From: a virus
Length of the DNA: 64,000 bases
Reading direction: 5' to 3' (one strand)
IMG/VR virus record: IMGVR_UViG_3300034103_001746
Coordinates: 64,001-128,000 of that record
Shown: positions 5,923 to 43,687 of the stretch, piece by piece
Layout: the number at the start of each line of letters is the position of its first letter
Position numbering within the stretch: position 1 is the stretch's first letter
The notes under the pieces: model-generated
Seen by the model: only the letters and a program-made list of their open reading frames with translations
What the model was told of the DNA's origin: nothing
Databases searched by the model: none
Position numbers and translations under genes: made by a program

Positions 5923-8900
5923 ATGAGCCAAAATATTACCACAGAAACATTGTATATTGGTACTGGTGTTCCATATAATAATATTATATCAGCATCTGGT
6001 GGCACCAATACTGTTTTTAATCAAAATAAACTAAATATAGACTTTGAAGTTAGAGGCACAGGTAATTATGCTTCTTTGTATTATGATGCTTCTACTGGTA
6101 GATTAGGCATAGGCACAGGACTCCCCGATGCTGTGCTTCACGTTATTGCTCCGTGCGCTAAAGATGGATTAATAGTAGAAAGTATCACAAATTGTCCTAC
6201 TGGAGTAACTTTATTATTAGTTCATAATCCACAGACCCCACCACAAACTGGTAGTTATCCAGCTATGATTACATTAGCTGGTCGTGATACCAACTATAAT
6301 GAAATTGCTTATGGTCAAATCAAATCCAGAATTTTAAGTCCTGTTACATCCGCAACTAGTGGAGAAATTTTATTTTTAGTTGATCATACAGGAGTAGCTA
6401 AAGAAGTTTTTGTAGCAGGTTTGACCAATTTAGTTTTAGGGGCTAATAATAGTGTGTCTGGTTTTTCTTATGAAGTATTGGGTCATAAGAATATCGGATC
6501 TGGAAATTATTATCTCACTATAGGATCAAATAACTCTGGATCATTAATGACTAATTCATTAAATATTGGTAATGATAATATCTTACGTGGACCTCAGATA
6601 TTTGCCATATCTAATGATTCTGTATTAAATGGTAGTGGGTTGTTTGTTCTTGGACTAGATAATACTGTTTCTGGTAATAACTCTGTTTTCTGCGGATCCG
6701 CTATATATGCAACAGGATCCAATAGCTTATTTGTTGCTAATAATAGTATAGTGCGAGGAAGCTACGGGGTCGGACTGGTGCAAAATGCTATGGTATCAGG
6801 ATTATCTGGTGTTATTTTAGGTACAAATTCTTTTGTTTCTGGTAATAATAATATCGCTATAGGTAATGACAATGCAATCGTTGGTAGTTCAACAAATGCT
6901 ATAGGTTCTTCCGTAGTCAGTTCTGGTAATAGAAATGTGGTTTTTGGTAATGATGTATTTTTGAGCGGACATAATTTAATTGCTATAGGTTCTAATCAAA
7001 TTGCATCCGGAATTAATAACGGTATTTTTATTGGTAATGATTTTGATCTTTTAAACACAGAGAATGTTCTTTATGTTGGTTTTAACAATACTACCGAGTC
7101 CGGATTAGTAAACAGTGTAGTGTTGGGTGCCAATAATGATTTAGATAATGGCTCTTTATCTAATGTTATTCTATTAGGTCAATATAATCTTACTAAAGAT
7201 ATATATAATTCAGTTATTATAGGCAATACTAATAATACCAGTGGAACATTAAAAAATAATATTTTAATTGGTAGTGGAAATGCCTTGATAGCGAATAATT
7301 ACAATAATATATTTTTAGGAGCACTAAACAATCAAACTGGAGTTTATATTAACTCTCAGGGTGAGGTTAGTGGTAACGCCAGAGCTATTAATGCCAATAA
7401 TACTAACTCAATATCTATTGGCACCAATAATTTATCAACCCTTAGTAATTCTAACGTGTTTGTTGGTAATAAAAATATAGTATCCGGGTTGAATGTTAGC
7501 GTTCTTGGATCATTCAATAATACCAGAAATACCAACAGAGTTTATATACTTGGTAATTCTAATTATGTTGAAGGTGAAAATCTTATTATTCTAGGTAAAA
7601 ATATTCTTGCCCTAGGCAAAGATATCATTGGGATGAACAATACGAATAGTCCTATGGATATTTATGGTAGTGGCTCTGTGTCTATTGGTAACAATACAGT
7701 TGTTTGCAGTGGTATAGCAGTCGGTTATGGTAATAATATGAATGGTGTTTCTGGTTTAATCTATGGTAAAAATAATACCTTGGGATTAGCCAAGCATATG
7801 TTCACTTTTTCTACTATCACACCATCTCAGTTAAATATTAATGGATTAGTTGGGGCGTTTTATAAAGCAAATGACGAAGTATTAGTACAGGTTAAAAATC
7901 CAGCTGGGACAGATAATTTATATAAATTTCAATTAAATTCTGTAGTAGAAGACGTATTTAATACTACTACGACACTAAATCTTGGTGGTGTTATTAATAC
8001 TGCTGGATTATCTAATAGATACTATGCTATTAATAATTCTTTTGATGATAATAATAACCCAACGATTACTGGTAGTGGTATCGTTATAGCCTTAAAGAAT
8101 TATGAAGAGTCCAAATTTTATGGCTCTAATAATATAGTTGTTGGAAGTACGAACACCGTAAGATACAGCGATAGTATCATTATCGGTAATAAAAACGTAT
8201 CTTCAGGAAATAATAGTATAGTTATTGGTCATAATATTAGTGGTGTTAATGATGGAGCCGTACATATTGGTACATCCAATGCGAATAAATTAATATTAGA
8301 TAATGAGCAAATAGTTATTAATAGCGGTACTGTACAAGAAAAAATAGTTATTCGTGGATATAATGGTAATATAGTAGAGTATCATGATTTAATTAATTCT
8401 AGACTAGGTATTAATAATACAGTTCCAAGATCAAGTTTAGATGTTAGTGGCACGGTTACAGCCGAAGCTTTTAGAATGGGCTTATCTACCACTAGCGGTT
8501 CTGTATTAACAGCTAATTCTAGTGGTATAGCTTCTTGGGTATTGCCAGTTAATTTATCTGGTACAAACCAAGGTTTATTATTTAGAGTGAGTGATAAAGT
8601 AGCTAGTGGTATTGATAGTATTAGATATGTTAGTGCCAGCACCGGTATTAATTTTTATGATAATATCTATATATTAAGAAATTCCGGTATCATAATAAAT
8701 GCTGATAAAGGTAGTAATATTTTACCAGTTAATTTTACGATTTGGGGATCTGGTGCAGCGTTTGCTCCTAAACTTTTAGAGGTAATTCCCGGACAAAACA
8801 TTACTAATTTTTATCAATTTACAGCAGATTCTGGTTCGCTTACTGGATTATCTGTTAACACAGCACTAAATGTTCCTAGAAGCTTAACTGGTACATTTTT

Positions 8901-27833: not shown

Positions 27834-28627
27834 AGTGAATCCTCTATTTCTATTGTCTTTTCGTTTGAGTTTTTTATGTCTTTAATAGCGTTGATTAATT
27901 TAGTATAAACAATACTTGCTCGTGATTGAGAATAGTCATGTATTTGTTTAACCCTAATCAAGGACAATCCTTTTCCTATTATCAATCCTGTTTTTTTCTT
28001 ATCATACTTTTGATTTCTAGCCAAAACATCTTCTCCCCACACGGGAAGAAAATGAGAAGGACCATCAACCTCAATTGCTAGATTCATTGTAGGAAGAAAG
28101 AGGTCAATTTGCAACTTTGTATTTGATAAGATTTGTTCTTTATGAAACTCTACAACAAACCCATCTTCTAGTAATTTTTGTAGAAGAAATTTTTCTAGTT
28201 TTGATCCTGTTTTACTGCTTTTCCTCACAGCTTGATTAGCTGATGCTATAATATTTTCTTTTTGATCGTCATCTAATGCTTGCCATGCTAATTTACTTTT
28301 ATGTTTTCTAGCATCCAGCGTTTGCTGATCCATATCATCCCAAGACTTCATTACAGACAATCCAATTTTACTTTTTGTAATTTCGTCTCTTGATAAACCT
28401 TTAGTTGGATGTTTATGTTTACCAGTCTGTAACGCATTTATTTGGGCTGCGCTTTTGTCTCTAATTGGTATACCTAATTTTTTAGCGTCTCTTCTAATTT
28501 TATTGGCATAGGTTCCACACTCACTAGCTATGTCGGCAAAACTTTTTTTCTGAACTAAATATTGTTCATTAATTAAAGCTATTTTTTGTTGATCTGATAA
28601 TTTATTATACTTTGGTAATAACATCAT
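27830..28627 (-). CDS. HTH plus Vsr/DUF559-like PD-(D/E)XK endonuclease
   Basis: N-terminal SFADIASECGTYANKIRR helix-turn-helix; C-terminal QIDLFLP...AIEVDGPSHF...YDKKK. Confidence 0.7.
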   Translation of the reverse strand: MMLLPKYNKLSDQQKIALINEQYLVQKKSFADIASECGTYANKIRRDAKKLGIPIRDKSAAQINALQTGKHKHPTKGLSRDEITKSKIGLSVMKSWDDMDQQTLDARKHKSKLAWQALDDDQKENIIASANQAVRKSSKTGSKLEKFLLQKLLEDGFVVEFHKEQILSNTKLQIDLFLPTMNLAIEVDGPSHFLPVWGEDVLARNQKYDKKKTGLIIGKGLSLIRVKQIHDYSQSRASIVYTKLINAIKDIKNSNEKTIEIEDSL

Positions 28628-29069
28628 AAAGTTCCTTAGCGTTTATGTTTTCTATCGTTGCTATAGGTTGCGACCAGCATATACTTAGTAAGTCTTCTAT
28701 TTCTTTATTTCTAGCTATAAGCTTAATATCTGGATTAACATATATACCATGCCAAAACATTACTGGTATAGTATGGTCATTAGACCAGCTTAATTCATCA
28801 ACATAAAGTATTTGTTTTTCTGGAGACGGAAAGGTTTTTGTGACCATAGCGCTTTTAATATCAAAGCACACCAATTTGCCTCTAAAGTATTTGGCTTGAT
28901 TAAGATGTATTATAGGAAATTTTTTATTGGAATCTGTACGATTAAATTGACTATTAAATAGTATGATATTATCATAAGGATGTTGATCGATCATGTCGTT
29001 TAATATATCAATAATCCTATTGCATTTATCAGAATGATCAGCGTTTATTAAATAAAAAGCTATGTCCAC
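28605..29069 (-). CDS. Hypothetical protein, possibly a glycosyltransferase N-terminal-like domain
   Basis: 154-aa alpha/beta ORF at the end of the GT operon. Confidence 0.5.
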   Translation of the reverse strand: MDIAFYLINADHSDKCNRIIDILNDMIDQHPYDNIILFNSQFNRTDSNKKFPIIHLNQAKYFRGKLVCFDIKSAMVTKTFPSPEKQILYVDELSWSNDHTIPVMFWHGIYVNPDIKLIARNKEIEDLLSICWSQPIATIENINAKELYDVITKV

Positions 29070-29070
29070 T

Positions 29071-29796
29071 TTATGCCTCTATAAGTTTTAGAAGTTTATT
29101 GTTTATAAAATTTTCCATAGAATATTGTTGAATATTATCTTTTAACGATATCAAATTTAATTCTTTTATATTGTCTATTAAATTACCATTTAAAGATATA
29201 TTTTTAATTCCACAAGACTGTGCCTCAAGACTATAAGATTGTGTTAAATCTAACACATATTCAAATTTATTCAATAATACAGCCATATCAGCGCTATTAG
29301 CTAGTCCAATATTTTGAGGGTGATTAAATTGGGGATTATTGATTAATACAATTTTAGTATTACTTTTAGGATATAGGATATCGTCTAACAGCTGATGATT
29401 GATAGTATTATCATTATGCAATATAGTTAAAATTTTATCATTTCTTTGTGTTTTTAAATCCACAAATACTGTTGAATCATATATATATTCATAAGTTTCA
29501 CCTTGCTTTATGGTTTTAATATTAAACTTATGACAATATTCGGTTAGATCCTTATGGACAATATCACCCATAAAAATAACGATGTTAATTTTGTCTTTAA
29601 ACGTATCAACAAACTCATGGAATTCTTGAGTATATTCATATATTGGTAAGATCACCGTATTTGGTTGATATTTATGATAGGCATCAAAAATATTACCATG
29701 TAAAGACCCATTAATAATATCAATCTTTTGATTAAGTTGTTGTAATAGTGGAAAGTATATTCTTTGATTGCAAACATGGGCTAAGATTTTATTCAT
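29071..29796 (-). CDS. Divergent glycosyltransferase-like protein
   Basis: C-terminal LEAQSCG resembles the GT-B EAxxxG motif; operon context. Confidence 0.45.
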   Translation of the reverse strand: MNKILAHVCNQRIYFPLLQQLNQKIDIINGSLHGNIFDAYHKYQPNTVILPIYEYTQEFHEFVDTFKDKINIVIFMGDIVHKDLTEYCHKFNIKTIKQGETYEYIYDSTVFVDLKTQRNDKILTILHNDNTINHQLLDDILYPKSNTKIVLINNPQFNHPQNIGLANSADMAVLLNKFEYVLDLTQSYSLEAQSCGIKNISLNGNLIDNIKELNLISLKDNIQQYSMENFINNKLLKLIEA

Positions 29797-30485
29797 ACTG
29801 TTTCTTTTATTTTGTTAGAGTCTTTTATACTGGAAATTTTGATAATACTATTATTTTTAGTTTTGACCGGATGATAAAGTGTACCAGCATCGATTGATTT
29901 ATTAATTAATTCAAATAAAAACATATTTCTCATAGACTGGTTGTATATAGTCTTATATTTGAGCATAGACGAGTTGTCAATGTATATTATTTCATTCCAC
30001 GCATTATCTGTTAAATTAAAAAACATGTGTTGTACTTTAGAATCAATAATCGTAAAACCAATAGGAAAATCCGCTTTATTAGAATTAGTATAATAGATTT
30101 TTGGTATTGTAAGATCAGAATTTAATAAATTATTTTTGATATCGTTATTAAACAATATGCCATTATTAATAATAATACATCCGTCATATTTTTTTGTATT
30201 GTATTGATTTAGTATAAGTTCAAAAGCATATCCGTGATTAGCTGATTCATATAAATCATTTTTTATGATATAAACATTTGGATATTCGATTCTTTTTTTA
30301 ATTTTATCCAATCCAAAACCCAAAATAACATACGTATCTATTACCTTATCTCTGATGTTGGCAATTTGACAATTTATTAATTCTTTAGATTTAGATTTTT
30401 TAGATTTTAATAAGCCTTTTGGGCCTACAGATTTCATACCTCTAGTAATTTCATAAGATAGAATAAAACAAGCTAATTTTTTCAT
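29793..30485 (-). CDS. Divergent sugar-phosphate nucleotidyltransferase-like protein
   Basis: RGMKSVGPKGLL and VILGFG...N-x-x-Y motifs as in NTP_transferase/LicC; the LAAG and GD motifs are degenerate. Confidence 0.55.
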   Translation of the reverse strand: MKKLACFILSYEITRGMKSVGPKGLLKSKKSKSKELINCQIANIRDKVIDTYVILGFGLDKIKKRIEYPNVYIIKNDLYESANHGYAFELILNQYNTKKYDGCIIINNGILFNNDIKNNLLNSDLTIPKIYYTNSNKADFPIGFTIIDSKVQHMFFNLTDNAWNEIIYIDNSSMLKYKTIYNQSMRNMFLFELINKSIDAGTLYHPVKTKNNSIIKISSIKDSNKIKETV

Positions 30486-30892
30486 AGTTTCTTTTGTAAA
30501 ACAATAACAACATGATTATTGTCATTATATATTTTATATATTTTGATACCATCCATTTGTGAAATAATTTCTATCATATCAGAATCTAAAAATAAAGACT
30601 TAGACTGAGCTACAATATTGGATAAAAATTGACTATTAGCATTTCCCTTAGCGACATCTTTGCAAATTTTTGTGGCGTTAAGAAACTTAAAAGTTAAAAA
30701 GCCAGAATTGGTTAGTTTTTTACATAAATTTACAATATACGAAACCCTATCCTTATACAAATAAGAGTCTAATACTCCACAGATAATTTCTCCGCACGTA
30801 CCATTAGTTACCTTATCTAGATGATCAATAGTCAAATTGAAATAACCATCAAGATTATCTGATTCTGTAATAACAATATTAAGTTTATTCAT
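30482..30892 (-). CDS. Small methyltransferase-fold-like hypothetical protein
   Basis: EIICGVLD...KKLTNSGFLTF resembles the end of a class I MTase fold; no GxG motif. Confidence 0.35.
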   Translation of the reverse strand: MNKLNIVITESDNLDGYFNLTIDHLDKVTNGTCGEIICGVLDSYLYKDRVSYIVNLCKKLTNSGFLTFKFLNATKICKDVAKGNANSQFLSNIVAQSKSLFLDSDMIEIISQMDGIKIYKIYNDNNHVVIVLQKKL

Positions 30893-31806
30893 ATGATATA
30901 TGCCTCATTATTAGACTGATTAATAAGATTGCTGGTATGATTTTTAAATTTTTCAAAGTTGTAATTCAATTCTAGATGTGTCGTATATGTTTCTGTCAAT
31001 GGGGATATTAATGCTTGTTTAGCAACAGAAATAAGATCCTGAACGGTTCTTGCCATATATAAATTTGGCGTATTTGTATAATTATTAATTATCATGGGCG
31101 TAGCATATGTAATAACCTTACATCCACAAGCAACAGCGCACAAGAGATTAATAATATTATGTTCACCAAGATCTATACATACGGAATATTGATTAAATAA
31201 ATCTCTTATTAAGTCTATATCAAAATGAATCTCTGTTAAAATATCAATTTCGAGTCCTTGGCTGTGTAAAAATTGAGCTAATGGTTCTATATTTGGGGAT
31301 TTTTCAAAATTTAAAAGTAATACTTTGTTTGATCTAACTTTTTTCTCTGGATATAGTTTATTTGTAGGAACACCATAATTGTAGACAACGCGATTGTTGA
31401 GCCTCCACGAGTCCGCAACATCTTGAGAAAAGAATACTTTAGTATCTCTTCTTAGGTTTTGATCTAACAATACAACATCTTCTTTTTTAATTTGTTGTGG
31501 TTTATATGAGTGTGTAAAGATAATAGCGTTTAGATGCTCTACAGCAAATCTTTTGTGTGTCGAATATCCAATAATATTATTTGTAATACCAAGATTATAA
31601 TTAAATAGATGCTCTTGATTATTATCAACAAGAGTCATATTAGATTCTTTTAATCCTAAAAAATTATATGTTTTTGGTGAAAAAAGTCTAAATCCACTTT
31701 CTGATAATAGAAGATCAAATAAGCTTCTTTGTGGTTCATATAAAATGTTGATTGGTTGATTATTAAATTTATTTAATATATTACCAGTAATTTTGCTTAG
31801 ATACAT
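30889..31806 (-). CDS. Divergent GT-B glycosyltransferase-like protein
   Basis: YNYGV...LLCAVACGCKVIT matches the GT4 C-terminal pattern with the Glu lost. Confidence 0.55.
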   Translation of the reverse strand: MYLSKITGNILNKFNNQPINILYEPQRSLFDLLLSESGFRLFSPKTYNFLGLKESNMTLVDNNQEHLFNYNLGITNNIIGYSTHKRFAVEHLNAIIFTHSYKPQQIKKEDVVLLDQNLRRDTKVFFSQDVADSWRLNNRVVYNYGVPTNKLYPEKKVRSNKVLLLNFEKSPNIEPLAQFLHSQGLEIDILTEIHFDIDLIRDLFNQYSVCIDLGEHNIINLLCAVACGCKVITYATPMIINNYTNTPNLYMARTVQDLISVAKQALISPLTETYTTHLELNYNFEKFKNHTSNLINQSNNEAYII

Positions 31807-32921
31807 AGCTTAGAGCCTATACTTTCATAGGAGAAGTTATTTAAACACGACATACCATTTTGTTGTTTTCTTAAAAGTAGAGAATCCTGTTTTTGATGCA
31901 TATCATAAACCATTCTCATTTTTTCTATGAGATCATAAATATCAACTTTATACCAATATTCATTAGCATTATAAATATCAAAATCTTCAGACAGTGTTCT
32001 CTGATTTAAAATCACAGGTGTTCTATGGCTTTTAACTAAAAAGCCATTATCATCAGTAATATAATCTTTCATTCCCGTATTTTGATTAACTATAGGAGTC
32101 TTACCAAGTACCACAGCTTCGGCAGCTGGTCTACAAAATGCTTCGCCATAAGATGGTGCAACAAAACAATCACAAGAATTATGCAATCCGATAATATCTT
32201 GATAAGATAGTGAGTTAGTTATAATAATTTCTTTTTTGTATTTTTTACTAATGCCTAGCTTATTTTTGACAATATTAATTTCTTCTTCTAGTCTTCTAGC
32301 TACCTCTGTTGGATTTACTCCTCCTTGATTAGTTTTGATAATTAAGCACACGGGTTCAGAGTAATCGAAAGCTAAATTAAAAGCTATTACTAGATCAAGA
32401 ATATTTTTTCTAAAATTATGTTCGCCTATAAAATAGAACTTAAACATATTATCTAGTATACTATTGAGCGATAACTTATAGTTGCGATTTTCTTCAATAA
32501 ATGCTGTGTCTAGCGGTTGTGAAATAATTTTAATATTTGTGGTTACGCCCGATTTTTTGAGACATTGTTCCTCCATCTTTGATGGAACCCACACCTCATC
32601 CATCCTATTAATATTATCTATGCATACTGATTCTTTGATATTATTGGTTTCTAGTACAAATAGGCCAATATTTTTTGTATATGATTTATTTAAAAACAAG
32701 CAATGAGGTAGTGTTTTTTGTATGACCATATCATAATGATCGTACCTATTATTTTCATATCCAATAATTTCTTGGTCATTAAAAGTTAAATCTGGTTTAG
32801 ATAAATATATGGGTCTGGTTGTTATATTTTTGTGTTGTGTAGCTAAAGCTTTTATATAAGATCTTGTAGCCAACCCCCAACCATCATTTTGACGATAGGG
32901 CCCTATAAACAAAGTATTCAT
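31797..32921 (-). CDS. Glycosyltransferase family 4
   Basis: DEVWVPS, RKNI, DCFVAPSYGEAFCRPAAEAVVLGKTPI (E-x7-E). Confidence 0.85.
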   Translation of the reverse strand: MNTLFIGPYRQNDGWGLATRSYIKALATQHKNITTRPIYLSKPDLTFNDQEIIGYENNRYDHYDMVIQKTLPHCLFLNKSYTKNIGLFVLETNNIKESVCIDNINRMDEVWVPSKMEEQCLKKSGVTTNIKIISQPLDTAFIEENRNYKLSLNSILDNMFKFYFIGEHNFRKNILDLVIAFNLAFDYSEPVCLIIKTNQGGVNPTEVARRLEEEINIVKNKLGISKKYKKEIIITNSLSYQDIIGLHNSCDCFVAPSYGEAFCRPAAEAVVLGKTPIVNQNTGMKDYITDDNGFLVKSHRTPVILNQRTLSEDFDIYNANEYWYKVDIYDLIEKMRMVYDMHQKQDSLLLRKQQNGMSCLNNFSYESIGSKLCI

Positions 32922-34588
32922 TTAATGCTATCCTTCATATGTGCATAATTAATATAATCTTCTGGATTTAATTTATCTAAATTATTTTTAGCCGTTTGTC
33001 CTAAATTATGGTTTTTAATAATAGTATTTAATATATCTAGTGCCTTTTGAACACTGTAACCTTCCGTACTTAATCCTTGAGTAATAAAACCATAATCTAA
33101 ATCCCTAATGATATTTAGCATAATAGTTGATGATCCAATTTGATGGTTAGGAAGATGTTTTGACACCAAGAAGGTTATTAGATCATATGAATTATTAATA
33201 TTTTCTGGAATATCTGTAATTTCTTCCATTAATGGAATTACTTGATCCCATTTACCTTGCAAACCAGTCAGTTGAATATTATCGAAATAATTTTCCCATT
33301 TTTTAGCTATGTCATCCCAATTATAATATTTTTCTGTTAATTTTCTAGTCTCAAATCTTTTTTGTTCCTTTAGTGGCTCAGGCATCTTATAAAAAGATTC
33401 AAGCGTTTGTATTAAATCTTTATTATCTGGAAAAACCCTAATGGCTCTGGTTTCTAATTCTTTGAAATATTGTCCAACCTTAATTGGGTAACCATTAACT
33501 TTCCTTACTACATCGCTCATAGCGCTATAGTCTATGGATGCAACTGGGACGCCGCAAGCAGAAGCTTCTACCTGTGGCATACCAAAACCTTCGCAAATAG
33601 CATATTGTACATAAATATCAAAAAGATTCATCACCATGGCCAAGTTATTGGATGAAACACCATTACTAACATTTGGCATACTACAAGCCTTCTGTCCACA
33701 TCTTGGACAAACTGCTACTGGATGTTGAAATAATGATGGATAAAAATATCCACAGCTTTTGCAAGAATAAGTGAACAGCACCCTGTTTCCGATTTTGTAT
33801 TCTTTTAATAGTTGCGGTATATCCCAACCAGCATCCGGATAGCTTGTATGTAAATATAAATACAGGTTTTTGCCTAATTTATGATTGTTGGTTTGTTCAC
33901 ATTTTTCTAGTAGCTTTTTGATTGCGTAAAATAAGTCTGGTATTAGTTTACGCTTTTGATTCCTCATTACTGACCCAACAATAAATAAGTCTTCGCTGAG
34001 ATTAAACATCTTACGAAGTCCTTTTCTATCAGTTGTGGGTACGAATGTTTGTAGATCTACACCTGGAGATGTTGTGTCAATATAATTAATTTTGCCATTA
34101 CTTTGTTTGATTAGGGTATCTCTACCAAAATCAGAATAAGTAAATATCGCATCCGCATGTAAAAACGTATCTATCCAATCCTCTTGTTGTGGTTCAGAAT
34201 CGACTGTTGGCATTAGTACCCAGTGAAAAAATGGTCTTAGTGGAGAGAATTGTTGATAAGAATTCATCCAATAATCTCTAACATCAAAAACCACATCTGG
34301 TTGAAAATCTAATAGAACTCTTTCAAATCTCCATCGACCAAACTGATTTTCAGCAGAAGATTGGTATTCTGAATATCTGGGGTCTTTTTCATCAACGGCT
34401 CCAGCATAATATTTCCAATGAATATCTACGTCTTTTGGGTCGTTAGTTTTTCCATAACAAGCAAGTTCAGCTATGTCATACTTGCCTGTGGCATGAAGTC
34501 TCTTTAATATTTCTTTAGCATAAGTACCGAATCCTGAGCTTAAAAAGCTAGCCTCTGATACCATTAAGATTTTAAGTTTTTTATTCAT
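32918..34588 (-). CDS. Glycosyltransferase family 4 with inserted Zn ribbon
   Basis: SGFGTYA, MRNQKRK, EGFGMPQVEASACG; CKSC...CPRC insert. Confidence 0.88.
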   Translation of the reverse strand: MNKKLKILMVSEASFLSSGFGTYAKEILKRLHATGKYDIAELACYGKTNDPKDVDIHWKYYAGAVDEKDPRYSEYQSSAENQFGRWRFERVLLDFQPDVVFDVRDYWMNSYQQFSPLRPFFHWVLMPTVDSEPQQEDWIDTFLHADAIFTYSDFGRDTLIKQSNGKINYIDTTSPGVDLQTFVPTTDRKGLRKMFNLSEDLFIVGSVMRNQKRKLIPDLFYAIKKLLEKCEQTNNHKLGKNLYLYLHTSYPDAGWDIPQLLKEYKIGNRVLFTYSCKSCGYFYPSLFQHPVAVCPRCGQKACSMPNVSNGVSSNNLAMVMNLFDIYVQYAICEGFGMPQVEASACGVPVASIDYSAMSDVVRKVNGYPIKVGQYFKELETRAIRVFPDNKDLIQTLESFYKMPEPLKEQKRFETRKLTEKYYNWDDIAKKWENYFDNIQLTGLQGKWDQVIPLMEEITDIPENINNSYDLITFLVSKHLPNHQIGSSTIMLNIIRDLDYGFITQGLSTEGYSVQKALDILNTIIKNHNLGQTAKNNLDKLNPEDYINYAHMKDSIK

Positions 34589-34603
34589 ATTAGATGATAA
34601 GAG

Positions 34604-34637
34604 AAAAAAGATAGGGGGTTTTTACACCCCCATCTTT
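34604..34637 (-). terminator. Intrinsic terminator after ssb
   Basis: Minus strand AAAGATGGGGGT-GTAAAA-ACCCCC(T)ATCTTT-TTT: GC stem followed by a U-tract. Confidence 0.75.
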
Positions 34638-34653
34638 AAGAATGAAAAATATA

Positions 34654-35025
34654 TCAGAACGCTACGGTTTCGTTCTGTTCGGACTTATTCTTCTTTGATA
34701 GCTTGGTAATCTTGGAGAAGTTGTTTACGCGTACCTTTAGAGTACTATGCTTTACTCCATCCTTTTCCCAAGAATCATTACGCAATGAGCCTTCAACTAG
34801 CACTAGATCGCCCTTCTTAAAAGAATCAGCGATGATCTCAGCGCCTGTGTCCCAGGCTTCACATGAAACGAATGTTGTTACCTTATCCTTTTCACCATTA
34901 GACTTGGTATACTCACGAGAAACAGCAACTGTAAAGTTAACAACAGTAGTCTGCCTTCCGCCAGTGTTAACAACACGAACTTCTGGATCACGAGCTAAAT
35001 TTCCTCTTAAGATATTAATATTCAT
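34654..35025 (-). CDS. ssb: Single-stranded DNA-binding protein
   Basis: LRGNLARDPE, FTVAV, KGDLVLVEGSL OB-fold motifs; AGGAG SD before ATG at 35025. Confidence 0.93.
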   Translation of the reverse strand: MNINILRGNLARDPEVRVVNTGGRQTTVVNFTVAVSREYTKSNGEKDKVTTFVSCEAWDTGAEIIADSFKKGDLVLVEGSLRNDSWEKDGVKHSTLKVRVNNFSKITKLSKKNKSEQNETVAF

Positions 35026-35063
35026 ATTCAAACTCCTTGATGTGAAAAACCAAATTACAAACT

Positions 35064-35091
35064 ATTATAGAAGGTCTCTGATCGGTGTCAA
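35064..35091 (-). promoter_or_regulatory. Sigma70-type promoter for ssb (TTGACA-16 bp-TATAAT)
   Basis: Perfect hexamers at 35091-35086 and 35069-35064; the -35 box contains the dnaE-C stop codon. Confidence 0.8.
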
Positions 35092-36713
35092 GATTTTGCG
35101 ATGTAAGCCTTTTCCACTATGAGCGAATCCCCGGTCTTTGACCTATTACCTTTCACTATGATAACATTGCTTCCAAACAACAAGTTTCTATAGCTTCTGT
35201 ATTGCTCTGGAAAAAATACAACAGAATCTAACACACCAGAACCATCTGTTAATGTTACAAATGCCATCTCTAAACCGGGATTCTTTCCTGTTTTGGTTTT
35301 GGTAACACTAATATTGTCTACCTCTCCACATAATATGATATTATCTTTATTGAGACTATTTTTAAATTCTTTACAAGTTGTATTAGTCATACTAATATCA
35401 TACATATCAACCTTGGAACACGTTATACTACAACCGAGCGTTTCTTCCTCTGTATCCGCTATCCATTCTGGATTATCTTCTAAAGCATATGGAGGTCTCT
35501 TTAAAGTATTAAGTAAGTTTTGTACTACAGTTACTCTGTTTTTATTGAGTTTGCCTATTTTCATTAATCCTATAAAAGCATCTTCTAAATTAGAATAAGA
35601 ATATATATTTGTTAATATCGTTCCGATTTCTTTCTTTGTCAATTCATTTATTAAACTCAATTCAAACAACATAGAGTTTCTGGTCTTTTTTAAAAAAGAC
35701 AAGGCCCCGCTCTGAATTAAAGATTTTGCTGCTGTAGAATTAATGTCTGATAGTATCATTAAAGCTGTTTGAATCCAGTTCAATTTATTTAAATCTATTT
35801 GCTTACTAGATATAATATTATTTAGTTTTTCATATACAGCATTTCCAAATCCCTTGATATCTGTTAAGCCAAAATAAATTTGATTATTTTTTAAGATAAA
35901 TAACTTGTTCAGATTACGAATGTCTGGGGTGCTAACAGTTATATCCATCTCGCTAGCATTTTGTACTAATTCTTTAATTTCTGCTTTTGGATCAATTTTA
36001 TCTTTAGCAAATCGTAAATAAGATGCGAAAAATATTTTTGGGAAATGCGATTTGGTATACGCTGATAAATATGCATTAATAGCATAGCTAACAGCATGTG
36101 ACTTATTAAAAGAATATCTTTGAGACTTTTCAATCCAACCAAAGATCTGCTCTGCCTCATCTTCTGTGACTAAATTTAGATTTTTAGCACCCAATAAAAA
36201 TTTTGATTTAACTTTAGCCATTTCTTCTGGCTTTTTCTTTCCAATAGCTTTTCTTAACATATCGGCTTCTTGTAGATTAAAACCAGCGATAGTTTTAGCG
36301 ATCTCCATCGCTTGTTCCTGATAAATCATTTCGCCATATGTTGTTTTCAAAATGGGTTCTAGAGATGGATGAAAATTATCTATAGTTTCTTGTCCATTTT
36401 TTTTATCTATATAGTGATTAGTCACACTCTTTCCATCACGTATAGCCTCTAAGCATCCGGGTCTAAGAATACTGATTAGGGCAGATAATTCTTCAATATT
36501 GGAAGGTTTTAATTTTTTAGCAATAGATCTTCCTAGTCTAGACTCCAACTGAAAACAACCTTTTGTGTTTCCATCAGATATTAAATCCCATGTTTTATAA
36601 CATTCCAAATTGATAGTTTCAATACGGGGATCAAAGGACAATTTCATATCCTCTCCTTCGCCCGAAATAATATTAAAAGAACATCCGCACGGATATTGAA
36701 ATTTTTTAGACAT
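35088..36713 (-). CDS. dnaE: DNA polymerase III alpha, C-terminal part (fingers, HhH, OB fold)
   Basis: FQLES, LRPG, TYGEMIYQEQ, ADMLRKAIGKKK, YSFNKSHAVSY, GLTDIKG, MAFVTLTD. Confidence 0.92.
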   Translation of the reverse strand: MSKKFQYPCGCSFNIISGEGEDMKLSFDPRIETINLECYKTWDLISDGNTKGCFQLESRLGRSIAKKLKPSNIEELSALISILRPGCLEAIRDGKSVTNHYIDKKNGQETIDNFHPSLEPILKTTYGEMIYQEQAMEIAKTIAGFNLQEADMLRKAIGKKKPEEMAKVKSKFLLGAKNLNLVTEDEAEQIFGWIEKSQRYSFNKSHAVSYAINAYLSAYTKSHFPKIFFASYLRFAKDKIDPKAEIKELVQNASEMDITVSTPDIRNLNKLFILKNNQIYFGLTDIKGFGNAVYEKLNNIISSKQIDLNKLNWIQTALMILSDINSTAAKSLIQSGALSFLKKTRNSMLFELSLINELTKKEIGTILTNIYSYSNLEDAFIGLMKIGKLNKNRVTVVQNLLNTLKRPPYALEDNPEWIADTEEETLGCSITCSKVDMYDISMTNTTCKEFKNSLNKDNIILCGEVDNISVTKTKTGKNPGLEMAFVTLTDGSGVLDSVVFFPEQYRSYRNLLFGSNVIIVKGNRSKTGDSLIVEKAYIAKS

Positions 36714-37401
36714 TGCCTGAAAAAGAATCCTTAAACTTAATTTTTTGAGCCAAATTTCTGTGTAGTTTTAGAAACCTAATAAGAATTTCTGCACAATCTT
36801 GTACGTCTTTTAGAGCGTCGTGAGCGCCTTCTTTCGATAATCCAACATAATCCCTCACAGAATCAAGAGTATAGCTCTTTAAGTCATTATTGTATTCAAA
36901 CCAATAAAAAATTAAATTCATTATATCAACTACGTCTCTTGGGAAAAAGACATTAGAGGTACCTTCTTTATTTGTATTTCCATATTTACCACTAAGCCTA
37001 TCTATAATTTTGAGATCAAATCTATTGATATTATATCCAGCAGCAATTGGGGCTGTAAATTGACTCTTTTTAGAAGACCTAGTATGATACATATCTAGAT
37101 AATTTACAAACAGTTTCCAAGATTGTTCTTGAGAAGGGTAGTTTTTCCATTGGCTTAATATATCGTCTTTAGAACAACTTTTAACTTTTGCATGAAAATC
37201 CAGAATGTCTGTGGTATAAGTATAGTTATCATCATTCGCCAAAACTTCCGGCTTAAAGAAAATATTAAATTCGGATTTTGGTATAACCTCTAATTTGATC
37301 GGGTCGATCATGACAGCAGCTATTTGTACAGGACTGCATTGCTTAGGATCGGATCCATCTGTTTCAAAATCGAATACGCAAATTTTGTTATAATTAATCA
37401 T
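36706..37401 (-). CDS. DEDDh 3'-5' exonuclease (DnaQ/epsilon-like)
   Basis: VFDFETDG (ExoI), AGYNINRFD (ExoII), HDALKD (ExoIII). Confidence 0.88.
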   Translation of the reverse strand: MINYNKICVFDFETDGSDPKQCSPVQIAAVMIDPIKLEVIPKSEFNIFFKPEVLANDDNYTYTTDILDFHAKVKSCSKDDILSQWKNYPSQEQSWKLFVNYLDMYHTRSSKKSQFTAPIAAGYNINRFDLKIIDRLSGKYGNTNKEGTSNVFFPRDVVDIMNLIFYWFEYNNDLKSYTLDSVRDYVGLSKEGAHDALKDVQDCAEILIRFLKLHRNLAQKIKFKDSFSGNV

Positions 37402-37585
37402 TAACTTCTACTTCTGTAATTGGTATGACTTGAATTTTTGTGTTACTATCATTAGCTTGTGATGCATTATTAACATGGCAACAACTAACTCTTTCATCAG
37501 GTATCTTCACATATTCGATACCGTTTAGAGTAAATTTGTCACCAACCTGAACATCAATAAACTTTTTTAAAGACATATTAATCAC
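37394..37585 (-). CDS. Small beta-rich hypothetical protein (start may be ATG 37576)
   Basis: Fills the gap with overlapping start and stop; VGDKFTLNGIEYVK...SCC. Confidence 0.65.
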   Translation of the reverse strand: MINMSLKKFIDVQVGDKFTLNGIEYVKIPDERVSCCHVNNASQANDSNTKIQVIPITEVEVND

Positions 37586-39453
37586 CTATCTCCTAGAATA
37601 TCTTGAATTGTCATAATTTTATCCAACATTGCTACTCCTAATATATCAAATTTAATAATACCAATTGATTCTAAATCTTGCATTTCCATTCCCGCTATTA
37701 ATTGCTTATTCTTAGAGTCATAAACCATTGGACAGGCTTCGTTCAATGGTAATGCACTGATAGCAATACCGGCCGCGTGTTTGGATTGATTCGATTTAGT
37801 ACCCTCTAATCTAATAGCTTGTTCGAAGCGTTTGGCAAGTGGTCCTTGTAGTTCATTTTTTTCATCAATAAAGCACCACTCTTTGAGTTTGTCCGGATTA
37901 TTCTCCAAAGCCCATCTAATAATAGACGCTTCTCCGGTTTCTTCTTTCATTTCTTGTAAATCGTCTGCTATTTTGGCTTCGTCCGGAATATTTTTAGTAA
38001 TTTTATTCATTTCATCAAAAGAAATATTGCCATATACTCTTAATACGTCCTTCAAGGCTCCTCGACCCTTAATAGTATTAAATGTAATCATTTGAGAAAC
38101 TTTATCGTGACCATATTTGTTTTTAATATATTCAATAATAGTTTCTCTCTTATTGATCGGTACGTCCACATCAATATCTGGCATGGATATATGGTCTTTT
38201 GAGTTACGACCAGCATTATAAAATCGATCAAACATTAGATTATATTTCATCGGATCAATACTGGTAATACCAATAAGATAAGATACTAAACAACCGGCAG
38301 CACTACCTCTACCCGGACCCGGAAGCCAAGAGTTATGTCTTACATAGTTAACAATATCTTGTACTATCAAAAAGTAGCTACTAAGTCCAGCTCCTTGTAG
38401 AACTTCTAGTTCATATTTAATTCTATCTACATATTGTTGTTGATCGTCTTTATTAATAGTGTTTGCTATTTTGTCTCTCCAGCCATCTCTACACAGTTGT
38501 CTTAGATATTCGTCTGGATTATATCCATCAGGACAAGCAAACGGAGGAAGCCTAGGCTTACTCAAAACATTATATTCTTCACACAAACCAGCAACAAAAT
38601 TGGTATTTTCTATTTCTTCTTCTGTATGCAGACTATTCATTTCTTCTTGTGACAACAAATGAAAGTTATCAGAAGTAAAAAAACAAGAAAGAGGAACTTC
38701 TTCGTCATTGCTAATTTTTCTACTAATTTCTGGAAATGTTGTCTTTAAATTGTTACACAGTAGGATTCTTTGGTCATTAGCATCTTCTTTACGACAATAA
38801 TGAGCATCTGGTGTGCAAACCACTTTAGTATTAGTGAGTTTTCCCAATTCTCTGACCACACCGGTTAAATCTTTTTGGATCGGGGTGTTGTTCATATCCA
38901 TTAACTGAGATTCTAAAAAGAAATTATCTTTACCAAAGATATCTTTCAATATACCTATTTGCTCTAGTCCTACATTTTTCCAATCCTTAATTAATGCGTT
39001 ATTTTGAACTATCTTGTCCGCTAATACAGAGCCTAAATGACCACAAATGCCTATAATGTCGCCATCGCAAAATCTAGCAACATGATCTAGACTTAATCTG
39101 GGTTTATGATAATAAAAATCTGGCCTATTAGATTCAGACACCAACTGAATAAGTTTATTCCAACCCTTTAAGTTTTTTGCCAAAACAAGAAAATGACTTA
39201 AGTCTTTATTAGACTTGTCTTGTATTGTGGGGTCTTGATCACAAACATAAATCTCGCAACCTAGTATGGGTTTGATGCCCTTAGACTTCATTTCTGTATA
39301 AAACTTAATAGCCCCAGCTATATTTCCGTGATCTGTTAAGGCACAAGCAGATGCCCCAATTTCTTGACATCTTTCTGATATTTGTGATGGTTTTGATAGT
39401 CCGTCCAACAAACTAAACATTGAGTGACAATGTAAAGGTATATAATTCCTCAT
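37582..39453 (-). CDS. dnaE: DNA polymerase III alpha, N-terminal part (PHP, palm, thumb)
   Basis: LHCHSMFSLLDG, TDHGN, GPGRGSAAG, MPDIDVD, SKHAAG, KFDILG. Confidence 0.93.
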   Translation of the reverse strand: MRNYIPLHCHSMFSLLDGLSKPSQISERCQEIGASACALTDHGNIAGAIKFYTEMKSKGIKPILGCEIYVCDQDPTIQDKSNKDLSHFLVLAKNLKGWNKLIQLVSESNRPDFYYHKPRLSLDHVARFCDGDIIGICGHLGSVLADKIVQNNALIKDWKNVGLEQIGILKDIFGKDNFFLESQLMDMNNTPIQKDLTGVVRELGKLTNTKVVCTPDAHYCRKEDANDQRILLCNNLKTTFPEISRKISNDEEVPLSCFFTSDNFHLLSQEEMNSLHTEEEIENTNFVAGLCEEYNVLSKPRLPPFACPDGYNPDEYLRQLCRDGWRDKIANTINKDDQQQYVDRIKYELEVLQGAGLSSYFLIVQDIVNYVRHNSWLPGPGRGSAAGCLVSYLIGITSIDPMKYNLMFDRFYNAGRNSKDHISMPDIDVDVPINKRETIIEYIKNKYGHDKVSQMITFNTIKGRGALKDVLRVYGNISFDEMNKITKNIPDEAKIADDLQEMKEETGEASIIRWALENNPDKLKEWCFIDEKNELQGPLAKRFEQAIRLEGTKSNQSKHAAGIAISALPLNEACPMVYDSKNKQLIAGMEMQDLESIGIIKFDILGVAMLDKIMTIQDILGDR

Positions 39454-40493
39454 TCTACGCTTCCTGGTGCTTTGTACTTACCAACAGTATAGCCGGGAGT
39501 CGTGTACTCGTCAACAACGTTTTTTATACCTTTCATCTCTATATCGTGTCGAATTTGTTCACATTTAGTCATAAATTTATCTTTTTGTGTTACCTGACCA
39601 TCTCTATATTCTATTATTGGTAACAACTTAGAGTTTTCAAAAGTTGTTTTTCCAAAATGGCATAATTTAGTACATTTCCATGTTTTGGTTAGTTTCGGGA
39701 TTTGAGCATTTTTAATTGCTTCAAATTTTTTACGAAGCATTTCTTCTGTAGATAATAAATCATCTTTATCATAGCAAATAGTAAATGGTCCACCATCATT
39801 AATAAAATTAATAGAGACCATTACATGATCAATATCAGGATATAACTGACTCACAGCATAATGATATATTTTAAGCTGAGGATCATTTTGTAACTTCTCA
39901 TGAGTTTTTTCCTCACCAGTTGCCCAATCTAATCTTCTTCCTGTTTTCCAGTCTATAATTTCTATAGTATTATTATCTACTTTTGTTATTAAGTCTATTG
40001 TACCTTTAATTGCTAAATTACCCTCTATAATTTCTCCTTGATGATTATATTTAAATTTTGCCCACTCTCTTTTGATTTCTATATCAAAATGTTGTTCGGG
40101 CTGTAGGATATTTCTATTTCTAGGATCAAACATTCCATTATTACTGTCTAATGCCTTATGTACCCAAGCGTGACAATCTTTATAGTCCTTTAGTTCCCAT
40201 GCGTGGTGAGTAAATTGGCTAGTATAGTAATTATAGACTTTCTCAATAATAGTGTTCAAATTATATTTGTTTGTACTAACTTTTCCAATAACATCGTCTA
40301 TTATGTCTTTTTCTTTATTTTGGTCGGCCAATTTGATACAGGCTAGAATTTCTAGAACTTTATGTACTATTGTTCCTTTGTCTGCTTTTTTATTCGAGGG
40401 TGATCTCATTCCAAGAACATACTCTATAAAATATTGCTGTTCGCACATAGAGTGTGTGCCATAGGAACTACTTCTAAGGTATGTAATTATAAT
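39450..40493 (-). CDS. Cas4/AddB-like PD-(D/E)XK nuclease, probable ATT/ATA start
   Basis: GTIVHKVLE, GTIDLI, IIDWKTG, QLKIY; Cys set C...CTKLC...C; frame extends upstream as IITYLRSSSYGTHSMC. Confidence 0.8.
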   Translation of the reverse strand: MIITYLRSSSYGTHSMCEQQYFIEYVLGMRSPSNKKADKGTIVHKVLEILACIKLADQNKEKDIIDDVIGKVSTNKYNLNTIIEKVYNYYTSQFTHHAWELKDYKDCHAWVHKALDSNNGMFDPRNRNILQPEQHFDIEIKREWAKFKYNHQGEIIEGNLAIKGTIDLITKVDNNTIEIIDWKTGRRLDWATGEEKTHEKLQNDPQLKIYHYAVSQLYPDIDHVMVSINFINDGGPFTICYDKDDLLSTEEMLRKKFEAIKNAQIPKLTKTWKCTKLCHFGKTTFENSKLLPIIEYRDGQVTQKDKFMTKCEQIRHDIEMKGIKNVVDEYTTPGYTVGKYKAPGSVE

Positions 40494-41107
40494 GGTAGTA
40501 TTCCCTCGGTTTTAAGAAAATGAAAGATTTGATTATTTTTATCATCTAGATTTAGATTTTGATTATCTACAACTAGACTAAATTTAGACCAATCATAATT
40601 ATTTTTATCTAAAGCAACTTCAGCTTCTGCATTGGAGTTAAATAGATCTCTGGTTAGTCTAATAACAAATCCTCCAACATTGAGTATTCCATCAACCTCA
40701 TTAGGGAATCTATTGTCTAATACTATTGCTAGATCGTATTGTTCTCTATCAATTTTATCTAAAGTGGCATCAACCCATATATTATTTTTGATTTTTCTAA
40801 ATATTTTAGTGCCAACAACTTCCATGACTTCTCTGGCAGTCATGTATTCATCTCTGTTACAGTCTATGCCGGGTATGTCTTTCCACTTTACAGAAGTTAA
40901 AGTATTTTTTTGCTCGTCTGTACCATAGCATTGTTCATGTGTTAAACCCAATAAATTAATACATATGTCTTGTTTTAATGGATCAGCAAAGCTATATAGT
41001 TTATAACTGATTGGTAAATTATAAGTTTTGATAAGATGTTCTATATATTCTCCTCCAGTACTTTTACCAGATTGCTTGCGTCCAGAAAAGGCTAAAATTT
41101 TTGTCAT
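40487..41107 (-). CDS. Deoxynucleoside monophosphate kinase (T4 gp1-like)
   Basis: SGRKQSGKST P-loop, SFADPLKQ, TAREVME-x-x-GT, DNRFPNE. Confidence 0.82.
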   Translation of the reverse strand: MTKILAFSGRKQSGKSTGGEYIEHLIKTYNLPISYKLYSFADPLKQDICINLLGLTHEQCYGTDEQKNTLTSVKWKDIPGIDCNRDEYMTAREVMEVVGTKIFRKIKNNIWVDATLDKIDREQYDLAIVLDNRFPNEVDGILNVGGFVIRLTRDLFNSNAEAEVALDKNNYDWSKFSLVVDNQNLNLDDKNNQIFHFLKTEGILPL

Positions 41108-42264
41108 ATAATTTTTCCCATATATTCCACGATCTCCTTTTTAATTTCGTCCGGTGTCATTTCTGCTATGTCTGGCTTAGATATTTGTGGTATAAATATC
41201 CTATAAGTGTTTTGACACTTATTTTTAATTTGTTCCGCAGCTTTTTTGCCCGCTTCGTCATTATCTGTTAATATTACTATATTCATTGCTCCAGAAGAAT
41301 CAAGTATTATTTTCTGTCTATCGCTCAACGAAGAACCAAACATGGCTACGCTATTATGTATATGATTTTCTTCTAACTTCCATACATTTCCTGGGCTTTC
41401 TACAATAATAACTATACCAGAATCTAGTATCTGTTTTTTTGCAAACCAGAAGTTATATAAATAATTTTGGCTTTTAAATTCATGGTTGTGCTTCCACTTT
41501 GAATATTTCCATTTTTCTTCATCAGTAGGACAATTGTCTATCGGATTATGATGAGATTTACACTTGTCACATTTTTCAAAAATACTTCTTCCTGAACACC
41601 CAACAAGATATTTGTGGTCGTGATCATATATAGGAGCTACGGCTCTATTAAACATTTCTTTTCCTTGTTTATCACATACGCCCACATCATACTTGTCTAA
41701 GATTTCTGGAGAAAAGCCCCTATCAATAAAATATTGTGCTGGTATGGTCAAAGACTTTCTTACAGAGTCTCTAGAGACTAAGGCAGATGCTAAAGGGGTT
41801 GGCTCCGATTTCATATGGCCCACCAGACTAGTGAAAAGTCTTTTGTCTCTATCTGCTTTAGATATTTTAATTTGTTTTAAGTCTTTTTTGAGAAAAGTTA
41901 AACAATAATCTAATGCCTCATCAAAAGTGCAAGTAGAATCTCCCTGTTTTTGCCAGCCGTGTTTTTTATTGGACAAAACCCCTCTTACAAATCCAATGAT
42001 AGAACCCTTAAAACACTCTTCACAACCGTGTGTTCTACATTTCCAGTTACCCCTATAGTTATCTCCCTCATAATATATATTAAGAGCTGAACTATTATCC
42101 CCGTCATGAATAGGACAGGCCATAGATAACATCTTGGGTCTAAGATTATATTCTAATCCTAGATTATCCATTAATGATTCTATATTATCGCAAAGATCGT
42201 CGCAAACTACTTTAAGCTTGGCTTGATCAATTGAACGGGATTTCTTCTGCATGGCTGTTTTCAT
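41104..42264 (-). CDS. dnaG: DNA primase (Zn finger plus TOPRIM)
   Basis: CPIH...WKCRTHGC; IVESPGN and LTDNDEAG TOPRIM motifs; adjacent to the helicase. Confidence 0.82.
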   Translation of the reverse strand: MKTAMQKKSRSIDQAKLKVVCDDLCDNIESLMDNLGLEYNLRPKMLSMACPIHDGDNSSALNIYYEGDNYRGNWKCRTHGCEECFKGSIIGFVRGVLSNKKHGWQKQGDSTCTFDEALDYCLTFLKKDLKQIKISKADRDKRLFTSLVGHMKSEPTPLASALVSRDSVRKSLTIPAQYFIDRGFSPEILDKYDVGVCDKQGKEMFNRAVAPIYDHDHKYLVGCSGRSIFEKCDKCKSHHNPIDNCPTDEEKWKYSKWKHNHEFKSQNYLYNFWFAKKQILDSGIVIIVESPGNVWKLEENHIHNSVAMFGSSLSDRQKIILDSSGAMNIVILTDNDEAGKKAAEQIKNKCQNTYRIFIPQISKPDIAEMTPDEIKKEIVEYMGKII

Positions 42265-43687
42265 CGTCTACTATAAATCCTTGATCTGATGTTGATTTGT
42301 TATTTACTATTTCAAGTCTAGTCTTACCTTCTGTAATTTTAGCGCACCAGCCCTTCATATGACAATTAATATAGTCATTGTCATCTAGACCTCCTCCGTG
42401 TCTACTAATAAGAGGTAAAAGCTTACGATTTCCGTTGGTCGGCCCGTCCTCCGCTATTTCCTCGTCACTCTTTCTTTTAAAGATCGTAAAATTACTACAT
42501 AGCCATATTATACGATCAGATCCACTCGCTGAGTCTGTGCTTTCTTTTGTTATGCCGTCTCTATTTAATTGTATAAATGCCACAATAGGAACTTTATATC
42601 TTACAGCAAAATTATGTAGACTTGTCATCATAAAACCTAGTACTTGGTATTCTTTCATATCTTGACTAATACCCGCACTATCCATAAGTTTAAGATAATC
42701 ATAAAAAATTACGCATTCTTTTGCTGTTCCGTCATCATTCAAACCAACCTCTTTTACTAGCCATCGCCTCATAATTGCCAACTGGTCTTCGAATGGTTTA
42801 CCAGCAATACTTTTATGATATAGTTTCATCTGTTTTAGTTCTGAAACCGCTTGTGATATTTTTGTTTTAGAATCTGCTGTTTCGGCGAACTTTCCGGTTT
42901 CAATATGATTAATTTCTATCTCTGTCATCATCGCTAAAATTCTATGGATATGATCCTCTTTATTCATTTCTGTATCCATATTCAATACCGGTATACCAAG
43001 CTTTGCAATATTTTTACCCATATTGTCAGATAGCAATGTTTTACCGGTTTTTGGTCTGGCTCCTATTACATTAATAGTTCCTTTTCTTAAACCGCCTCCG
43101 ATAGCTTGGTCATAAATAGGAAACCCGGTTGGTATACCTACTTGATCTATTTTATTTTCTTCAAGAGCTTTAATATAGTCATCAATATTAGAGCCAATAA
43201 CTTCCGGGCTTCCATCAGCATCATTTAACAAAGAAGTAAAATTAAAAATGCTATCTTCTGCTAAACCTATAATAGAAGATATCGGTTCACTACCCGTTAC
43301 ATCTAGAATTTTTTCTTGAGCTAGTTCTAGTTGTTGTCTTAATAAACGAGCTATTTCTAGTTTGCGTATTTTTGCTGCAAATCTACGAACGTTTTCCAAA
43401 CTAACTGGAAAATCCATTATAGCCCTTAGATGCTGTGCCTCTTCTTTTTTAGCAAGAACATGACTCAGATTTAATTCTTGTGCAATAGAGTATATTGAGG
43501 CTATGTCTATTTTAGCCTTTGTTTCTGATTCACACAACTTTTTAACGCATTTAAAAATTAAAGCGTTACTATCAATAGTAAAAGATGATTCTTGGACGAT
43601 ATCAGCAACATCCAAAAAAGCATCTTCGCCATAATTACAAATACCCGCCAATACGGCTCTTTCTGCCGAAGGATCACTCAAAATCAT
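42227..43687 (-). CDS. dnaB: Replicative helicase
   Basis: AERAVL, GIPTGF, GARPKTGKT, DYLKLM, QLNR. Confidence 0.92.
   Translation of the reverse strand: MILSDPSAERAVLAGICNYGEDAFLDVADIVQESSFTIDSNALIFKCVKKLCESETKAKIDIASIYSIAQELNLSHVLAKKEEAQHLRAIMDFPVSLENVRRFAAKIRKLEIARLLRQQLELAQEKILDVTGSEPISSIIGLAEDSIFNFTSLLNDADGSPEVIGSNIDDYIKALEENKIDQVGIPTGFPIYDQAIGGGLRKGTINVIGARPKTGKTLLSDNMGKNIAKLGIPVLNMDTEMNKEDHIHRILAMMTEIEINHIETGKFAETADSKTKISQAVSELKQMKLYHKSIAGKPFEDQLAIMRRWLVKEVGLNDDGTAKECVIFYDYLKLMDSAGISQDMKEYQVLGFMMTSLHNFAVRYKVPIVAFIQLNRDGITKESTDSASGSDRIIWLCSNFTIFKRKSDEEIAEDGPTNGNRKLLPLISRHGGGLDDNDYINCHMKGWCAKITEGKTRLEIVNNKSTSDQGFIVDDENSHAEEIPFN

Follow-up and report, generated by a model that had tools for sequence, protein, structure and literature searches.

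DnaE encoded in two intein-free pieces around an exonuclease gene in an uncultured aquatic phage

The closest published idea to the gene arrangement described here is the minimal split Pol III alpha predicted in T4-like "group 2.2" jumbo phages, where two standalone proteins without inteins would form a polymerase core that lacks the PHP domain and the other accessory domains; the two genes lie far apart and beside a family-B replicase, and an auxiliary or ancestral role was proposed for them (Iyer et al. 2021, PMC7824862). Both cyanobacterial split DnaE and "fractured genes" (Dassa et al. 2009, PMC2677866) rely on split inteins, at another site than the break described here. In uncultured cyanophages, what has been called a "split DNA polymerase" is a T7-like family-A enzyme (Flores-Uribe et al.); a further report deals with a split polymerase of chimalliviruses (PMC13648687), and neither Kazlauskas et al. 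2016 nor the 2026 bacterial polymerase survey mentions a split of the kind found here. The present study concerns the DNA polymerase locus of an uncultured aquatic phage (IMG/VR record IMGVR_UViG_3300034103_001746; 149,532 bp, rated complete by CheckV), which lies in a window of 64,000 nucleotides (the whole stretch of DNA that was analyzed, bases 64001-128000 of the record). The original prediction for this window held that dnaE is divided at the palm/fingers border, with no intein involved, into two complementary open reading frames (ORFs), and that the gene of a proofreading exonuclease sits at the split. This interpretation is supported by the analyses below, and we consider it highly probable that the locus encodes a genuine two-polypeptide DnaE, translated separately and reassembled non-covalently into one active site. 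In the literature, no description of an intein-free DnaE split between palm and fingers with an exonuclease in the gap was found.

The locus comprises four ORFs on the minus strand, with successive overlaps of 4, 8, and 8 nt. The first (37582..39453, read from 39453 to 37582) encodes the N-terminal half of DnaE (N-half; 623 aa), in which PHP, palm, and thumb were recognized by Pfam (PHP, PF02811, E 1.3e-35; DNA_pol3_alpha with its Pol-beta-like palm, PF07733, E 1.7e-72), by phrog_405, and by alignment to PDB structures. A stop codon follows residue 623, and the C-terminal half (C-half; 35088..36713, 541 aa) is a separate ORF 880 nt downstream that carries the fingers (DNA_pol3_finger, PF17657, 4e-46), an HhH domain of the beta-binding type (HHH_6, PF14579, 6e-9), and an OB fold, for which the match of 26.1 bits was just below the cut-off of 27 and the fold model has a C-terminal beta-barrel. 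Between the halves lie the two genes that had been expected there, one for a 63-aa protein (37394..37585; GTG start, with an alternative ATG four codons in that would give 59 aa) and one for a 231-aa DEDDh (DnaQ/RNase T-type) 3'-5' exonuclease (36706..37401), which matched RNase_T (PF00929, 1.2e-10) and phrog_192. On phrog_405, a profile of full-length phage DnaE, the N-half covers positions 41-615 and the C-half 622-1068, with nothing lost and nothing duplicated, bearing out the claim that the two ORFs are complementary.

In PDB alignments, N-half residues 4-613 fell on residues 6-565 of Escherichia coli alpha (up to 625 in the Thermus aquaticus [Taq] enzyme) and C-half residues 31-298 on E. 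coli residues 586-850 (from 647 in Taq). The alignments therefore place the cut between E. coli alpha ∼565 and ∼586, in the loop that follows the strand bearing the third catalytic Asp, at the palm/fingers junction proposed originally. All three catalytic aspartates (D426, D428, and D603) are within the N-half, which ends 20 residues after D603 rather than the 18 first counted, and none of the three varies among 58 distinct relatives. Of the nine candidate PHP metal ligands, eight are essentially invariant as well, and C137 is Cys in 48 of the 58 sequences and S, T, or A otherwise. In 52 relatives, the exonuclease residues D11, E13, D129, H194, and D199, which represent the Exo I, II, and III motifs, are likewise invariant. 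The classic DnaE intein site is uninterrupted in the C-half (Y200-S-F-N-K-S-H206), as had been read at the outset, and the break in the window lies ∼200 residues upstream of it. The two-piece DnaE is the only DNA polymerase of this phage: the complete genome has a single DnaE palm, and no family-A (PolA) or family-B (PolB) polymerase was found in it. Neither a beta clamp nor a clamp loader was found in the genome, and a C-terminal tau-binding region was not detected in the split DnaE. The HhH domain ends with a conserved R-x-x-M-L-F-[E/D] motif (C-half residues 345-351, window 35661-35681). As neither clamp nor clamp loader is encoded by the phage itself, this motif is a candidate for binding the beta clamp of the host.

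To survey relatives for the same breakpoint and gene order, IMG/VR was scanned, yielding 180 relatives, of which the best 80 were used (N-half identity 68-93%; contigs up to 244 kb). The order PD-(D/E)XK nuclease, N-half, small ORF, exonuclease, C-half, SSB was present in every one of these 80 loci with enough flank, and the layout is therefore far beyond chance. Spacing at the junctions stayed almost throughout between -23 and +10 nt, with +57 nt in L067 and L068. The two outer genes of this order are likewise on the minus strand of the window, the nuclease gene directly upstream of the N-half (39450..40448) and the SSB gene directly downstream of the C-half (34654..35031). Median ratios of nonsynonymous to synonymous substitution rates (dN/dS; NG86 pairwise values, pairs with dS of 0.05-1.5) were roughly 0.077 for the N-half, 0.236 for the C-half, 0.176 for the exonuclease, and 0.48 for the small ORF, with 0.14 for the flanking SSB gene and 0.16 for the flanking PD-(D/E)XK gene. 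These values indicate that all four genes are under purifying selection, including both halves, for which relaxed selection would have spoken against the original prediction. When distance matrices were compared, those of the two DnaE halves and the exonuclease correlated with one another (r = 0.76-0.78) and mostly at 0.52-0.56 with those of the flanking genes (C-half and SSB: r = 0.69); partial r among the three remained ∼0.6 after control for the flanks, and coupling of the small ORF was weaker (partial r = 0.24-0.38).

The split reaches far beyond these close relatives. An exhaustive HMMER search covered 1.84 billion cluster representatives, and among the 150 nearest 50%-identity clusters (at 39-73% identity) 126 consisted of N-half-only proteins, while ∼17 were intein-bearing N-halves stopping at the same residue (∼143 ending there in all). 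Four were fused N+C proteins (P0126, P0133, P0145, and P0200), and two (P0129 and P0150) continue past the junction as far as an intein fragment close to the classic site, where they terminate. The breakpoint is identical across thousands of independently assembled sequences, and the split is kept at 39-43% identity with at least 2.5 kb of unrelated genes between the halves (gap up to 2.5-3.6 kb). In L084 (39% identity), for example, six genes including one for uracil-DNA glycosylase separate the halves and the exonuclease gene has kept its place immediately upstream of the C-half; in L086, five genes are followed by the exonuclease, a 60-aa ORF, and the C-half. The halves co-occur wherever flanks allow (L085 had no C-half within the fetched flank). 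Two syntenic loci differ in form. In L082, DnaE is a single fused protein of 1133 aa and the exonuclease gene follows several genes further downstream, and in L083 (58-6407) dnaE is broken at YxFNKSH into an 891-aa N-part with a terminal intein-fragment match, a 303-aa gene, and a 373-aa C-part, with the exonuclease and a LAGLIDADG gene upstream of the broken dnaE; L083 is thus a "fractured gene" inside a phage group that elsewhere uses the intein-free split.

Several further features of these families were recorded alongside. In L084, a trypsin-like protease gene lies directly upstream of the N-half in addition to the uracil-DNA glycosylase gene between the halves (L084:4136-4999 and 7386-7955). 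The C terminus of the N-half in L086 (P0251; L086:2028-4316) is fused to a circularly permuted YpsA SLOG domain (PF12694, E 1.6e-35), and the fusion point is the exact usual end of the N-half. Inteins recur at N-half positions ∼66 (PHP) and ∼383/384 (palm) and at C-half position ∼86 (fingers) (L010:10726-13092, P0127, P0142, and P0126), the last being of HNH type in L010 and of LAGLIDADG type in P0127; the intein-free break is retained in the intein-bearing L010, P0127, and P0142. In L060 (10740-14232) and L062 (10769-11784), cargo lies between the exonuclease and the C-half, namely genes for an FkbM methyltransferase, a DUF1559 protein, ThyX, and unknowns. The DUF1559 protein carries a prepilin N-methylation motif, a protein type that we take to be common in Planctomycetota and that is a possible host clue. 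Homing endonucleases as a cause of the split were considered and rejected: the extra DNA of L060 and L062 is ordinary cargo and that of L010 a fingers intein. Two PHROG families cover parts of DnaE (phrog_13169 to residue ∼417; phrog_12219 from ∼424 through the fingers), and Bacillus jumbo phages have DnaE annotated as two coding sequences (LC597490.1 gp235/gp236); together these point to other DnaE breakpoints in cultured phages.

Close cultured relatives were not found in INPHARED, where the best match had ∼34% identity. In the cultured Rossellomorea phage phiT1 (PV767480.1; 52.8 kb), for which we found no publication describing the phage, gp20 (573 aa), gp19 (49 aa), and gp18 (469 aa) form a similar series, and both gp20 and gp18 are labeled "DNA polymerase III subunit alpha" in GenBank. 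The N-ORF ends 14 residues past the aligned palm block and the C-ORF starts 6 residues before the fingers block, and the intein-free break of phiT1 is therefore in the same loop as that of the window. Like the window, phiT1 has a tiny ORF directly after the N-half; unlike it, phiT1 lacks both an exonuclease gene between the halves and a Cys-Gly-Cys (CGC) leader (described below), its DnaE is ∼34% identical, and its 49-aa gp19 has no detectable relation to the 63-aa protein. The expectation of a proofreader gene at the split consequently holds for the window, where the exonuclease does lie between the halves, but not as an obligatory part of the arrangement. Fused DnaE was found in Bacillus phages PK-1, 056SW001B, and vB_BpsS-36, in two gut-phage contigs, and in Pseudomonas phage Y1, Saccharomonospora phage PIS 136, and Moorella phage MTATph1. 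In a tree of the N-half (FastTree, LG+gamma; 624 profile columns, 150 sequences; a single gene with distant outgroups), phiT1 grouped with the aquatic split clade at support 1.0, excluding all of these fused phages, and the only non-split members within the clade were {P0145, P0129, P0200} and {P0150, P0126, P0133}, each with support of 0.998. As the fused relatives form two nested clades, the tree suggests one old split followed by two re-fusions, which is much more parsimonious than at least a dozen independent splits. Junctions of fused proteins were extracted from P0150 and P0200 among the nested relatives and from four outgroups; those of P0150 and P0200 are collinear with the N-half tail plus the C-half head minus a leader of ∼22 residues.

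That leader occupies residues 1-30 of the C-half (36624..36713, minus strand) and has the form of an aromatic-x-Cys-Gly-Cys-x-Phe hairpin specific to the split proteins. C9, G10, C11, and F13 are each conserved at ≥90%, the element is present in nearly all C-halves of the aquatic clade, and fused relatives do not have it; C38, shortly beyond the leader, is invariant. In an AlphaFold2 model of the C-half (mean predicted local distance difference test [pLDDT] score of 86), the leader has a pLDDT of 85-88 and folds into two strands with CGC at the turn, so that it is modeled as a knuckle-like structured element rather than a loose tail. In the 63-aa protein, F18, C35, and C36 are invariant, and the model (pLDDT 93) is an all-beta, five-stranded barrel. 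The nearest solved folds are SH3/Tudor/KOW-like (eIF5A/EF-P domain I, FeoA, and CarD), although the resemblance is generic (Z ≤5, Foldseek E ≥0.04). The protein had no Pfam or PHROG family and fell in virus-only hypothetical clusters of the Atlas, and a hidden Markov model of the small ORF found nothing in the divergent loci L082-L088 and none in phiT1. The theta subunit (HolE) of the Pol III core is a small helical protein that binds epsilon; the 63-aa protein is modeled as all-beta. Leader and SH3-like protein are candidate assembly aids.

Taken together, these observations lead us to propose that the four genes are translated as a tightly coupled operon, the halves emerging as separate chains. 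From the N-half would come PHP, thumb, and a palm that holds the complete set of three catalytic carboxylates; from the C-half would come the HhH domain, the OB fold, and the fingers, which bind nucleotide and template. The halves would dock across a surface junction loop at the palm/fingers border to make one active site. Non-covalent assembly is likely because nothing at the locus could splice the pieces. The DEDDh exonuclease is the likely epsilon-like proofreading partner, beside a PHP domain that looks metal-competent, and this predicted partnership draws on its co-variation with both halves (at the r values given above) and on gene adjacency. The leader and the SH3-like protein may stabilize the assembly, possibly through a shared metal site. 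More tentatively, a single old split may be shared by a very large phage clade that includes phiT1, with at least two re-fusions, and the aquatic branch may have added the CGC knuckle leader and an SH3-like Cys-Cys mini-subunit, which with the epsilon-like exonuclease would form a four-chain viral Pol III core. We regard this fuller scheme as possible rather than probable; if true, it would be a replicase architecture without earlier description. The following points weigh against the proposals made here. Synonymous sites are saturated in many pairs, which makes the dN/dS values rough, and the correlation of distance matrices may come partly from shared recombination blocks, given that the genes are adjacent. 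The CGC leader is missing from L066 and L073. Finally, the small ORF is weakly constrained and goes undetected in divergent split relatives and phiT1; it therefore cannot be essential to the split as such.

A different view of the same genes is that the halves have separate jobs, the N-half acting as a PHP nuclease or crippled polymerase and the C-half as a clamp/DNA-binding factor, while host Pol III copies the genome. With no phage clamp or clamp loader, some parts of the host replisome are required anyway, and both the several kilobases between the halves in distant relatives and the fusion of one N-half to a SLOG domain would be at home in such a scheme. We nevertheless find it unlikely: strong purifying selection acts on all catalytic residues of the polymerase and on the fingers, each half is always accompanied by the other where the flanks permit a check, their distances co-vary, and the phage encodes its own DnaB helicase (43687..42227, minus strand), DnaG-type primase (42264..41104, minus strand), and SSB around them. 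Genes for a deoxynucleoside monophosphate kinase, RecA, and a class II ribonucleotide reductase also lie around the halves. A glycosyltransferase cluster directly downstream of ssb (28605-34588) is syntenic in L082 (11411-15368) and L083 (6780-10405), where dnaE is fused or intein-split, and is therefore a conserved companion of the replication module.

Joining of the halves by trans-splicing, through a cryptic or atypical split intein as in cyanobacterial DnaE or fractured genes, deserves attention in a family as rich in inteins as this one, at the three sites given above and at YxFNKSH, and with a true fractured gene (intein-fragment matches plus an intervening gene) in the syntenic L083. 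Yet the tails at the junction are 7-10 residues (N-half) and 22-25 residues (C-half) long, far too few for a HINT fold, and the search that readily detected inteins at other sites in relatives gave no intein or Hint Pfam match in either half at E 0.01, in agreement with the early reading that the new termini carry no intein motifs. The end of the leader lacks the usual His-Asn plus nucleophile, and the C-half of phiT1 starts directly at the fingers block with no leader. We therefore hold trans-splicing of the two-piece DnaE to be very improbable.

Equally little weight can be given to joining at the RNA level, whether by a group I or II intron carrying both intervening ORFs or by bypass or frameshifting to yield a single chain. 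Phage polymerase genes are known intron targets, but all four ORFs overlap and so leave no non-coding space, and a permissive Rfam search (E up to 1) of 34500-40000 gave no intron, only a sub-threshold small RNA match outside genes, which leaves the original prediction free of the intron that would have contradicted it. The exonuclease in the gap is of a conserved cellular type and is itself under selection; it is not a homing endonuclease, and the gap in relatives reaches 2.5-3.6 kb of ordinary genes. Over 43 loci the C-half falls in the three possible frames with respect to the N-half 17, 11, and 15 times, which argues against frameshifting or bypass. Decay or misassembly of the gene, for which nothing speaks beyond a stop codon inside what is usually a single gene, is already refuted by the conservation of the breakpoint in independent metagenomes, the low dN/dS of all four ORFs, and the invariant catalytic residues.

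The split replicative polymerase of the DnaE family described here is real and widespread, and selection maintains it. Bacteria use C-family polymerases as their replicases, which are also drug targets, and structural and mechanistic work regards alpha as a single chain, either from the start or once an intein has been spliced out. A natural intein-free split implies that palm and fingers can act when provided in trans. It gives access, in a natural setting, to the closing of the fingers on the palm and to the docking of the proofreader, and it marks a ready design point for an engineered split Pol III; the cultured phiT1 makes the two-piece idea experimentally testable. For annotation, thousands of such genes are called "DNA polymerase III subunit alpha" or could be mistaken for fragments.

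Compared with single-chain DnaE (T. aquaticus 2HPI/3E0D, E. coli 2HNH/5FKU, and Mycobacterium tuberculosis 5LEW/7PU7), the enzyme of the window has the same domain set and order and the same Asp triad, with PHP metal ligands of the Taq type and sequence matches at E 1e-82 and 1e-50; it differs in being two polypeptides, in having no detected tau-binding region, and in the CGC hairpin leader of the C-half. Some T4-related phages reportedly have an intein-free split family-B polymerase in gp43A/gp43B, and the split family-B polymerases of phages and archaea resemble the present case in that pieces of a replicase are encoded separately, but they belong to an unrelated polymerase family and fold. 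Cyanobacterial DnaE (Ssp/Npu split intein) is also encoded as two genes; the window differs from it and from fractured genes in having no HINT halves, no homing endonuclease gene between the pieces, and a continuous YxFNKSH site. In contrast to the minimal version of Iyer et al. 2021 (PMC7824862), the window encodes a full-size DnaE with PHP, HhH, and OB, its halves are only 880 nt apart, and no PolB accompanies it. What is new here in relation to these systems is the same break without an exonuclease in phiT1, the two nested clades of fused proteins, the CGC leader, and the 63-aa protein with its predicted SH3-like barrel.

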